From positions 1 to 17,434 of the forward strand of contig JAVZNT010000018.1 in the NCBI GenBank assembly GCA_038882655.1: a stretch of 17,434 nt of DNA. The letters run 5' to 3'. The position numbers and the translations under genes are program-made. How positions within the stretch are numbered: position 1 is the first letter of the stretch; every line of letters begins with the position of its first letter. Source of the stretch: Candidatus Bathyarchaeia archaeon (GTDB taxonomy: Archaea; Thermoproteota; Bathyarchaeia; Bathyarchaeales; Bathycorpusculaceae). The notes under the pieces were generated by a model that was not told the origin of the DNA, ran no database searches, and saw only the letters and a list, made by a program, of their open reading frames with translations. Shown one piece after another: positions 3-976 of the stretch.

Positions 3-422
3 CCGCCACTAAAAGATAGGTGGAAAGAGTTCCCACCACCAGAAGAGGCTGGCGGAGCCGCCACCCGAGAGGAGCTTATAAGGCTTAGGATTTTGCAGGA
101 TAAAGCCTTCACAGAGGAATTGGAAAACTTTTGGAATGAGTTGAAAAGGCTGGTTGGGGAGAAGGGCGAGAATGGCAGAATCCGATACTGGGATTTTGTT
201 GGTGCTGAAACCTATGAGGAGACAACCCGCAGAGCTTTCATGACAAGTTTTCTTGTAACTTATGGTTATGCAACCCTTGAGGTTCACCCATTGGAGGAAG
301 AAATCTTCGTTAAGCCTTTTGAGAGGCAACAGAGGCGCATAGCCAAAAAACAGCTGGTTTCGATACCCATAGCCATAACTGTTGAGGAGTGGGAAAAGTG
401 GAAGAGGGGAAACCAAAAATGA
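3..422 (+). CDS. C-terminal part of a kleisin-like protein (Nse4/ScpA-type C-terminal winged helix); 5' end lies outside the window
   Basis: The frame is open from base 3 ([15 protein letters not shown]...[14 protein letters not shown]...), so the TTG at 93 is internal. Segment [34 protein letters not shown] resembles the kleisin C-terminal pattern, especially Nse4 (FV..P.SF..TVEN.F..SFL...G). Its stop overlaps the next ATG (ATGA 419-422). Confidence 0.6.
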   Translation, partial: [139 protein letters not shown]

Positions 423-976
423 GTAGGAGGAAAGCCGTCTACGCCAGCAAAATGAAACGCGCCGTCCACATGCTTTTCTACCGAAGACATAAAAAGCCCG
501 GAGTGAAAGGCTGGGAACTCCGAAAAGCCTTGGGCTCAGACTACCCAAAAGTCCTAAATATTTTGGATGAGTACTTGAAACCTTTGGACTTGCAGGTTAA
601 AATGGTTTTTGAAGAGGAGAAGCCAGCCGCTGAAAAGCCAACGCTGGAAGAATTGGACAAGGCGAGGTTTTACATAACCCTAAGGGGTGATTTAACGCCT
701 AAAGAGGCTAAGATGGTTGGTTGGCGCATAGACGACTTGGCTGGACTAGCCATAACAATAGCCTACATAATCTCGAAAAAGGGAAAAGCACCCCGCAAAG
801 AGGTGGAAGAACTTTTACGCGAGAAGCTGCCGGGCTGGAAGGTGGGCTTAAACATAGACCGCTACATACGTTATGGCTATTTAACCCAAGATGAAAACGA
901 ACAGCTGTACCTGGACTGGAGAACAAGAGCGGAAGTAGACCAAAAAGCACTGATAGACTTAATTTTATCCAAGTAA
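419..976 (+). CDS. KITE-family tandem winged-helix protein, MAGE/Nse3-like (185 aa)
   Basis: ATG at 419 overlaps the upstream stop and is a likelier start than the GTG at 389. Motifs AVHMLFYRRHKKPGVKGWEL, YPKVLNILDEYL, RFYITL, LAGLAITIAYIISKKGKAPRKEVEELL and YIRYGYL...LDWRTRAEVDQKALIDLI are colinear with the MAGE homology domain (L..FLL.K...K.PI; FPEI; YIL; GLL..IL..I...GN.A.EE.IW; YL...WGPRA.AE.SK..VL.F). Confidence 0.65.
   Translation: MSRRKAVYASKMKRAVHMLFYRRHKKPGVKGWELRKALGSDYPKVLNILDEYLKPLDLQVKMVFEEEKPAAEKPTLEELDKARFYITLRGDLTPKEAKMVGWRIDDLAGLAITIAYIISKKGKAPRKEVEELLREKLPGWKVGLNIDRYIRYGYLTQDENEQLYLDWRTRAEVDQKALIDLILSK

Follow-up and report, generated by a model that had tools for sequence, protein, structure and literature searches.

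The window examined here covers the opening 17,434 nucleotides of contig C18 in a 1.02-Mb assembly of Candidatus Bathyarchaeia archaeon (27 contigs, 84% complete). It very probably begins inside an operon of three genes, one each for an ATPase related to SMC5/6, a kleisin of Nse4-like type and a KITE protein resembling Nse1/Nse3, with the 3' half of the second gene and all of the third at positions 3 to 976. The archaeon also keeps a canonical Smc-ScpA-ScpB; the likely role of the operon is in chromosomal maintenance. Both window proteins can be assigned an identity and a fold class, and in related genomes the pair is linked to an ATPase gene.

The gene pair at the start of the contig

Both genes lie on the plus strand and overlap end to start (Table 1), as the original prediction had described them, and the ATGA common to the two ORFs suggests that kleisin and KITE may be translationally coupled. 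Since the window begins where contig C18 begins, the kleisin ORF is truncated by the assembly and not by biology: the near-identical genome G006 encodes a protein of 276 aa whose residues 138-276 match the fragment at 99% identity, and residues 137-273 of protein P0002 match it at 91%. For the KITE gene, an alternative in-frame start (GTG at 389) would give a protein of 195 aa and a 34-nt overlap with the kleisin ORF. GAGG-like purine-rich motifs, read by eye, are found about 8-9 nt 5' of both candidate starts, and near-identical KITE proteins in public gene calls are 185, 191 or 197 aa long. The public records of near-identical proteins come from Candidatus Bathyarchaeia or Bathycorpusculaceae and are always named "hypothetical protein."

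Table 1. Features of the gene pair (positions in the window) and of the canonical SMC set of the same genome (contig C1).
Feature	Position	Strand	Remarks
Nse4-like kleisin gene, 3' half	3..422	+	C-terminal 139 aa of a ~276-aa protein; 5' end open at contig start; stop TGA 420-422
Kleisin C-terminal winged-helix domain	204..404	+	Fragment residues 68-134; placed by Nse4_C match, family profile and AF2 model
Nse1/Nse3(MAGE)-like KITE gene, complete	419..976	+	185 aa; candidate start ATG 419-421; stop TAA 974-976
KITE WH-A	419..682	+	Residues ~1-88; boundaries read from secondary structure of AF2 model
KITE WH-B	698..973	+	Residues ~94-185; boundaries read from secondary structure of AF2 model
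ATGA start/stop overlap, kleisin/KITE	419..422	+	Four bases common to both ORFs
Canonical Smc	contig C1		1182 aa; SMC_hinge 5.7e-24
ScpA-like protein	contig C1		232 aa; ScpA 7.4e-5, Rad21_Rec8 5.1e-4
ScpB	contig C1		209 aa; PF04079, 7.3e-37

Searched singly, the KITE protein gives little away. It matches no Pfam family at E<=10 (MAGE and ScpB included) and no NCBIfam model, P0003 likewise matches no Pfam family at E<=10, and phmmer against the PDB returns chance-level matches only, so that a profile is needed. The family to which it belongs has 4242 database relatives at E<=0.001, forming 123 clusters at 50% identity; names in ten distant clusters (Conexivisphaerales and Thermoprotei records) are again all "hypothetical protein." Aligned over 33 full-length, diverse members, the family has two winged-helix units, with a conserved core at the end of the second (W167, R168, E172, D174, L178). 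This is the stretch that had originally been compared with the MAGE motif, and the motifs then picked out by eye do fall in the best-conserved stretches of both families (W167, R168, E172 and D174 in the KITE; Y198, A214, S218, F219 and G224 in the 276-aa kleisin).

Used as a profile against all PDB sequences, the KITE alignment finds Xenopus Nse3 (7dg2_C, 1.4e-4), MAGE-G1 (1.4e-3), human NSE3 (5.7e-3) and NSE1 (8e-3 and 1e-2). The natural chains matched are MAGE/Nse3 and Nse1 only; no ScpB, MukE or JetB chain appears at E<=10. The strongest match in this search was a designed helical repeat protein, which was taken as spurious because it matched in four short repeats. The AlphaFold2 model of the protein (pLDDT 92.4, pTM 0.79) consists of two helix/strand winged-helix units, and Foldseek places MAGE-G1, Nse3 and Nse1 (TMq 0.57-0.60) first together with MAGE-A4, followed by JetB, Pyrococcus ScpB and MukE; every one of the six matches at E<=0.001 is to a KITE protein. 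The subtype could not be settled from the fold by itself, because the E-values of the two groups (4e-5 to 3e-4 for Nse1/3 vs 6e-4 to 3e-3 for JetB, ScpB and MukE, with moderate TM-scores) are only one to two orders apart; profile and fold are, however, in agreement. A further lead, to be taken as that only, comes from language-model features in the ESM Atlas, where the first Pfam-bearing clusters after the family's own are MAGE/NSE3 (0.91, 0.81).

These results support the assignment of the second ORF as a KITE of the Nse1/Nse3(MAGE) type and not ScpB, and the original prediction holds in both respects: family profile and best fold matches are of MAGE, Nse3 and Nse1, and the Pfam ScpB model, which recognizes the genome's true ScpB at 7e-37, does not match. 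The protein ends in a helix after WH-B, leaving no Nse1 RING-like domain. A single KITE had also been proposed, and indeed each operon has just the one KITE gene and the genome just one KITE of this kind, which would fit a homodimeric KITE.

The kleisin fragment can be followed in the same way. It has no NCBIfam match, phmmer of a single kleisin protein against the PDB again gives chance-level matches only (here too a profile is needed), and its match to Pfam Nse4_C (E=0.0018, 18.9 bits) is under the cut-off of 26. An alignment of 23 kleisin sequences, made up of three near-identical ones (from the window, G006 and a further relative, G013) and 20 from picked loci described below, is more informative: Nse4_C is matched by 17 of the 23 at E<=0.1 (best 3.5e-7), Pfam ScpA by none. 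Against the PDB the kleisin profile reaches yeast Nse4 (2.9e-4) and human EID3 (6.9e-4), with ScpA later at 0.069, and it aligns the winged-helix part encoded in the window to both of the former. The AF2 model of the 276-aa G006 kleisin, of mediocre to moderate quality overall (pLDDT 77.5, pTM 0.40), begins with a helical domain and ends in a winged helix, the stretch between them being poorly ordered; blocks spanning residues 171-250 have mean pLDDT 75-93. Only two chains match it by Foldseek at E<=0.001, both of them Nse4 of yeast Smc5/6; RAD21, ScpA and Brn1 come after. Sub-cut-off Pfam match, family profile and modelled fold thus all support the Nse4-like winged helix that had been proposed for the end of the first protein.

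The ATPase upstream in related genomes

Neither the N-terminal half of the kleisin nor an SMC ATPase gene to go with it is found elsewhere in this 84%-complete assembly. With both absent from window and assembly, the three-gene operon is inferred here from relatives. In G013 and G006, a 640-aa ORF with an SMC_N match (1.6e-37) and Walker A, signature and Walker B motifs lies directly 5' of the kleisin gene, which begins where this ORF stops; in G013 the two have a single base in common at that junction, and the stop codon of the kleisin gene runs into the candidate start of the KITE gene. A broader view comes from 20 loci, picked at about one per family code from 108 KITE-carrying genome matches in the phylum. 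In 18 of them the kleisin-KITE pair is directly preceded by an SMC-like ORF of 584-699 aa. One of the two exceptions is broken off at its contig end; in the other, kleisin and KITE are separated by two further ORFs, and the 2.6 kb upstream contain no SMC-like ORF. The linked SMC-family ATPase that the original prediction called for is therefore present in relatives.

The heads of this ATPase appear nearest to those of Smc5 and Smc6. Against the PDB, the single 640-aa protein matches Smc5 (1.5e-33), Smc6 (5.5e-28) and Pyrococcus Smc (1e-25) in that order, and a profile of 20 sequences widens the gaps (Smc5 237 bits, Smc6 224, Pyrococcus Smc 174, Smc2 137). As a control in the reverse direction, the genome's own 1182-aa Smc finds prokaryotic Smc together with Smc1-4; Smc5/6 is absent from its matches at E<=1e-20. 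In a small, head-only maximum-likelihood tree (32 rows, 397 columns), the 20 short ATPases form one clade (99/99) adjoining two eukaryotic Smc5 sequences (92/88, not starred, with long branches), and canonical Smc and Smc3 form a separate clade (96/88). Close relatives among the matches listed for an ATPase sequence pattern were a Thermofilales MAG and a Thaumarchaeota MAG, the rest being bacterial Smc proteins found through the generic Walker A motif. Profile scores, tree and control together support the expected closeness to Smc5/6. A suggested likeness to ClsN and Arcadin-4 did not hold up: none of the 20 ATPases has a zinc hook, and published accounts place ClsN and Arcadin-4 in other clades.

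The same sequences suggest an unusual build. Only 243-359 residues separate the two ATPase heads in 20 of 20 cases, which leaves no room for arms of Smc5/6 length plus a hinge. In the centre of the alignment (about positions 225-414) indels are large and no column is conserved; between the heads all 20 have 0-2 cysteines and no CxxC, and one has a single Gly/Pro in 323 inter-head residues. The SMC_hinge model of Pfam does not match the 640-aa protein, but neither does it match a true Smc5, so the argument for a missing hinge rests on length and alignment. A search for forms of at least 1121 aa, which is weak evidence, returned only canonical SMCs and eukaryotic Smc5-like proteins at no more than 96 bits. 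One possibility, put forward tentatively and with more doubt than confidence, is that the partner ATPase is an SMC of half length, in which each arm strand would count very roughly 110-170 residues and the arms would end in a bare hairpin tip with neither hinge nor zinc hook. Such an ATPase, encoded outside the window, would be the under-reported feature of the operon: a literature search and the main texts of Yoshinaga and Inagaki (2021; PMC8665677) and van Hooff et al. (10.1101/2024.01.07.573240) yielded no mention of a half-length, hinge-less build.

Predicted assembly, likely role and other explanations

A complex of two KITE copies and kleisin residues 80-205 was predicted from alignments of our own, which lie outside the tool's calibration. 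It scored an ipSAE of 0.65, the best of three controls scoring 0.00; the mark used is attained by 58 of 80 solved complexes vs 2 of 110 mismatched pairs. Runs agreed on at least 74% of contacts, with partner pLDDT of at least 55. In the prediction both KITE copies use mostly their second winged helix to contact residues 86-142 of the kleisin, and 10 of 17 conserved KITE positions fall within the 55-residue predicted interface (hypergeometric p=0.009). Nearly all of the kleisin stretch concerned is encoded upstream of the window. The prediction supports, rather than shows, KITE binding to the central kleisin stretch; the score could stem from solved structures of Nse1-Nse3-Nse4 that the model had already learned.

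By analogy with solved complexes of Smc5/6, Smc-ScpAB and MukBEF, the short ATPase would be present twice, and the heads of the two copies would engage on ATP. The kleisin would bridge the two, its N-terminal helices on the neck of one head and its C-terminal winged helix, the part in the window and the part expected to bind an SMC head cap, on the other. Two KITE copies would sit on the central kleisin stretch and, together with the ATPase heads, could clamp double-stranded DNA.

What such a complex might do is suggested by its distribution and context. The KITE is present, at one copy per genome, in 36 of 41 related genomes, full-length matches being 66-100% identical; of the five genomes lacking it, three have a completeness of 62-79% and two of 97%. 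In the phylum at large it was found in 108 of 201 sampled genomes (85 of the 173 of good quality), nearly all-or-none by family (16/17, 16/17, 9/9 and 7/7 vs 0/26, 0/15 and 0/8). The operon adjoins a NusA-L30e-RpoA-RpoB cluster. Within the operon, as seen in G013 and the 20 picked loci, there is no JetD/MksG-type nuclease gene, and neither kleisin nor KITE matches any PADLOC defence model (no JetA or JetB). An HNH gene at 1120-1656, downstream and convergent, was considered as a nuclease effector and rejected as strain-specific, being present only in this genome and G006 among 50 loci searched. An operon that occurs once per genome, is strongly conserved, follows lineage and has no nuclease partner favours chromosomal maintenance as the most likely role, in the sense of local compaction or of processing DNA junctions in connection with replication or repair.

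The main competing view of its function, that the complex is an immunity system which recognizes extrachromosomal DNA (viruses, plasmids) and silences or excludes it, is unlikely, although the ATPase lends it some substance. The heads resemble SMC-like defence ATPases in PADLOC (mad3 1.2e-31, LmuB 5.4e-23, JetC 5.7e-8), and the short arms resemble those of Lamassu's LmuB. Literature abstracts, moreover, describe Lamassu and Wadjet as SMC-based prokaryotic defence systems and attribute antiviral roles to Smc5/6, which in human cells acts against viral episomes. The resemblance does not extend to the other two subunits, which are without a PADLOC match, nor to a nuclease: none accompanies the operon, the HNH gene being confined to 2 of 50 loci. 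Single-copy genes conserved across the order, nearly all-or-none by family and beside an RNA polymerase operon look like core genes and not like residents of defence islands.

Other explanations would change what the two proteins are. It is very improbable that they are simply an ordinary, if divergent, ScpA and ScpB serving the canonical Smc. Chains of both families do occur lower in the fold and profile match lists, and all kleisin C-terminal winged helices, like all KITEs, have common folds. But the Smc, ScpA-like and ScpB genes of this genome stand in a row on contig C1, the Smc complete with its hinge, which means that ScpAB of this genome is a different pair from the one in the window; the window proteins have no ScpA or ScpB Pfam match, and in relatives it is a different ATPase to which the pair is coupled. 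This genome has two separate SMC operons. Hardest of all to credit is a pair of unrelated winged-helix DNA-binding regulators that happen to resemble SMC partners. Winged helices are common, it is true, and MarR-type regulators are among the weak fold matches of the kleisin model (E 0.14-0.5); against this stand the conserved three-gene linkage with an SMC ATPase, the specific Nse-type profile matches of both proteins, and a KITE-kleisin interface predicted against clean controls. The reading of the pair as the kleisin and KITE of an SMC5/6-related operon remains the preferred one.

Relation to known SMC complexes

Operons of this type, and their coexistence with a second complex in TACK archaea, are already on record, and the window pair is a member with nothing essential different. 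Yoshinaga and Inagaki (2021; PMC8665677) defined, in their main text, an "SMC5/6-related aSMC," mostly from TACK archaea with Bathyarchaeota named among them, and found it alongside canonical SMC in 44 of 80 cases. The preprint of van Hooff, Raas, Tromer and Eme (bioRxiv 10.1101/2024.01.07.573240) reports that TACK and Asgard archaea have kleisins related to Nse4 and kites of Nse1/3-like type, grouped with SMC in separate operons; in its main text the archaeal kites lack the C-terminal RING-like domain of Nse1, and the authors call for experiments. It was the only work returned by a literature search on archaeal Nse1/Nse3-like kites, and wider literature searches found no experimental paper on the complex. 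The archaeal SMC5/6-related complex, as these texts present it, and the operon described here have in common three genes, a TACK host that also has a condensin/cohesin-related Smc-ScpAB operon, and subunits nearest to Smc5/6, Nse4 and Nse1/3.

With the eukaryotic Smc5/6 core the archaeal operon would share the closest ATPase heads, an Nse4-type C-terminal winged helix and a MAGE-like KITE of tandem winged helices. Eukaryotic Smc5/6 has a pair of ATPases and a pair of KITEs, whereas the archaeal operon has one gene for each; Nse1 has a RING, whereas the window KITE ends after its second winged helix; and no Nse2- or Nse5/6-like gene is present in the operon in G013 or the 20 picked loci. Smc5/6 chains in the PDB measure 1069-1157 aa, compared with 584-699 aa for the archaeal ATPase and its 243-359 residues between heads.

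Smc-ScpAB has the same tripartite design of SMC, kleisin and KITE in one operon, but is here a separate paralogous set in the same genome, and the window proteins do not match its ScpA or ScpB families. MukBEF and Wadjet (JetABCD) share the KITE fold, JetB and MukE being among the Foldseek matches of the window KITE; they differ in that the window pair has no JetA or JetB match and the distribution of core genes, and in that no JetD/MksG-type nuclease gene is seen in the operon in G013 or the 20 picked loci. The ASRPs (ClsN/coalescin, Sph1/2) and Arcadin-4 are likewise short archaeal ATPases of the SMC superfamily. In published accounts, however, the ASRPs are a clade of their own, mostly with a zinc hook, and Arcadin-4 groups with Rad50, whereas the ATPase here has no CxxC and lies beside Smc5 in the tree.

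Annotation would benefit, since the proteins are labelled "hypothetical protein" and the KITE has no Pfam model. More broadly, an archaeal Smc5/6-related complex bears on how eukaryotes gained their several SMC complexes, a point already made in the literature, and this one would be a minimal version, with one ATPase, one kleisin and one KITE. If the half-length build of the ATPase is real, the Smc5/6-related complex of TACK archaea cannot form the usual hinge-closed ring, and would instead be a short, head-proximal DNA clamp held together by the heads, the kleisin and the KITE dimer. In that case Smc5/6 would descend from a mini-SMC of this kind, or else the Thermoproteota would have lost both arms and hinge.

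HNH endonuclease gene beside the KITE gene

The KITE gene is faced by a convergent gene for an HNH endonuclease with a lysine-rich tail, found, among the 50 loci searched, only in the window genome and its near-identical relative G006. It is probably a strain-specific insertion, since 13 further close relatives with 1.5-kb flanks at their loci lack it.

Variant loci and the ATPase arm

In one same-genus genome (G001:C3:21639-22289, minus strand), the KITE match is split into one piece spanning residues 2-103 and another spanning 102-185, a pattern suggestive of a frameshift or assembly error. 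At another related locus (L047 2620-5914, plus strand; G167:C19), two unrelated ORFs of 186 and 362 aa lie between the kleisin and KITE genes, and no SMC-like ORF of at least 100 aa was found on the plus strand within 2.6 kb upstream. In the alignment of 20 short SMC ATPases (A3), an almost invariant Ala precedes a conserved break of the Gly-Pro-Arg type in the C-terminal arm, at approximately residues 414-420 of the 640-aa member (L031 4404-6323); this break may be a coiled-coil discontinuity close to the head.

Other genes of the window and its genome

The canonical Smc operon of the window genome, on a separate contig, encodes an Smc of 1182 aa with a hinge, a ScpA-like protein of 232 aa and a ScpB of 209 aa, and is followed on the same strand by the gene for ribosomal protein S8e. 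RNA polymerase subunit A, which in most archaea is divided into A' and A'', is encoded in the window by a single ORF. Pfam gives no match at E<=0.001 for five window ORFs, which are 166-320 aa long; their neighbors are NadA, NikR, FmdE, DUF2148, Lrp/AsnC and DUF5752 genes.

Coordinates of features in the window and on contig C1 of the same genome
Feature	Location	Strand	Details
HNH endonuclease gene	window 1120-1656	-	178 aa, PF01844 3.2e-8
RNA polymerase subunit A	window 2811-6632	-	1273-aa ORF, all five Rpb1 domains
ORF without Pfam match	window 11947-12516	+	E<=0.001
ORF without Pfam match	window 13016-13570	-	E<=0.001
ORF without Pfam match	window 14252-14857	-	E<=0.001
ORF without Pfam match	window 14928-15425	-	E<=0.001
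ORF without Pfam match	window 16475-17434	-	E<=0.001
Canonical Smc-ScpA-ScpB operon	contig C1, locus L132 1121-5955	-	Smc, ScpA-like, ScpB

Habitat of close relatives

Two runs of a single study, which bears the label hot springs metagenome, contain contigs 92-99% alike to window positions 1-3000, so samples of this kind harbor close relatives.
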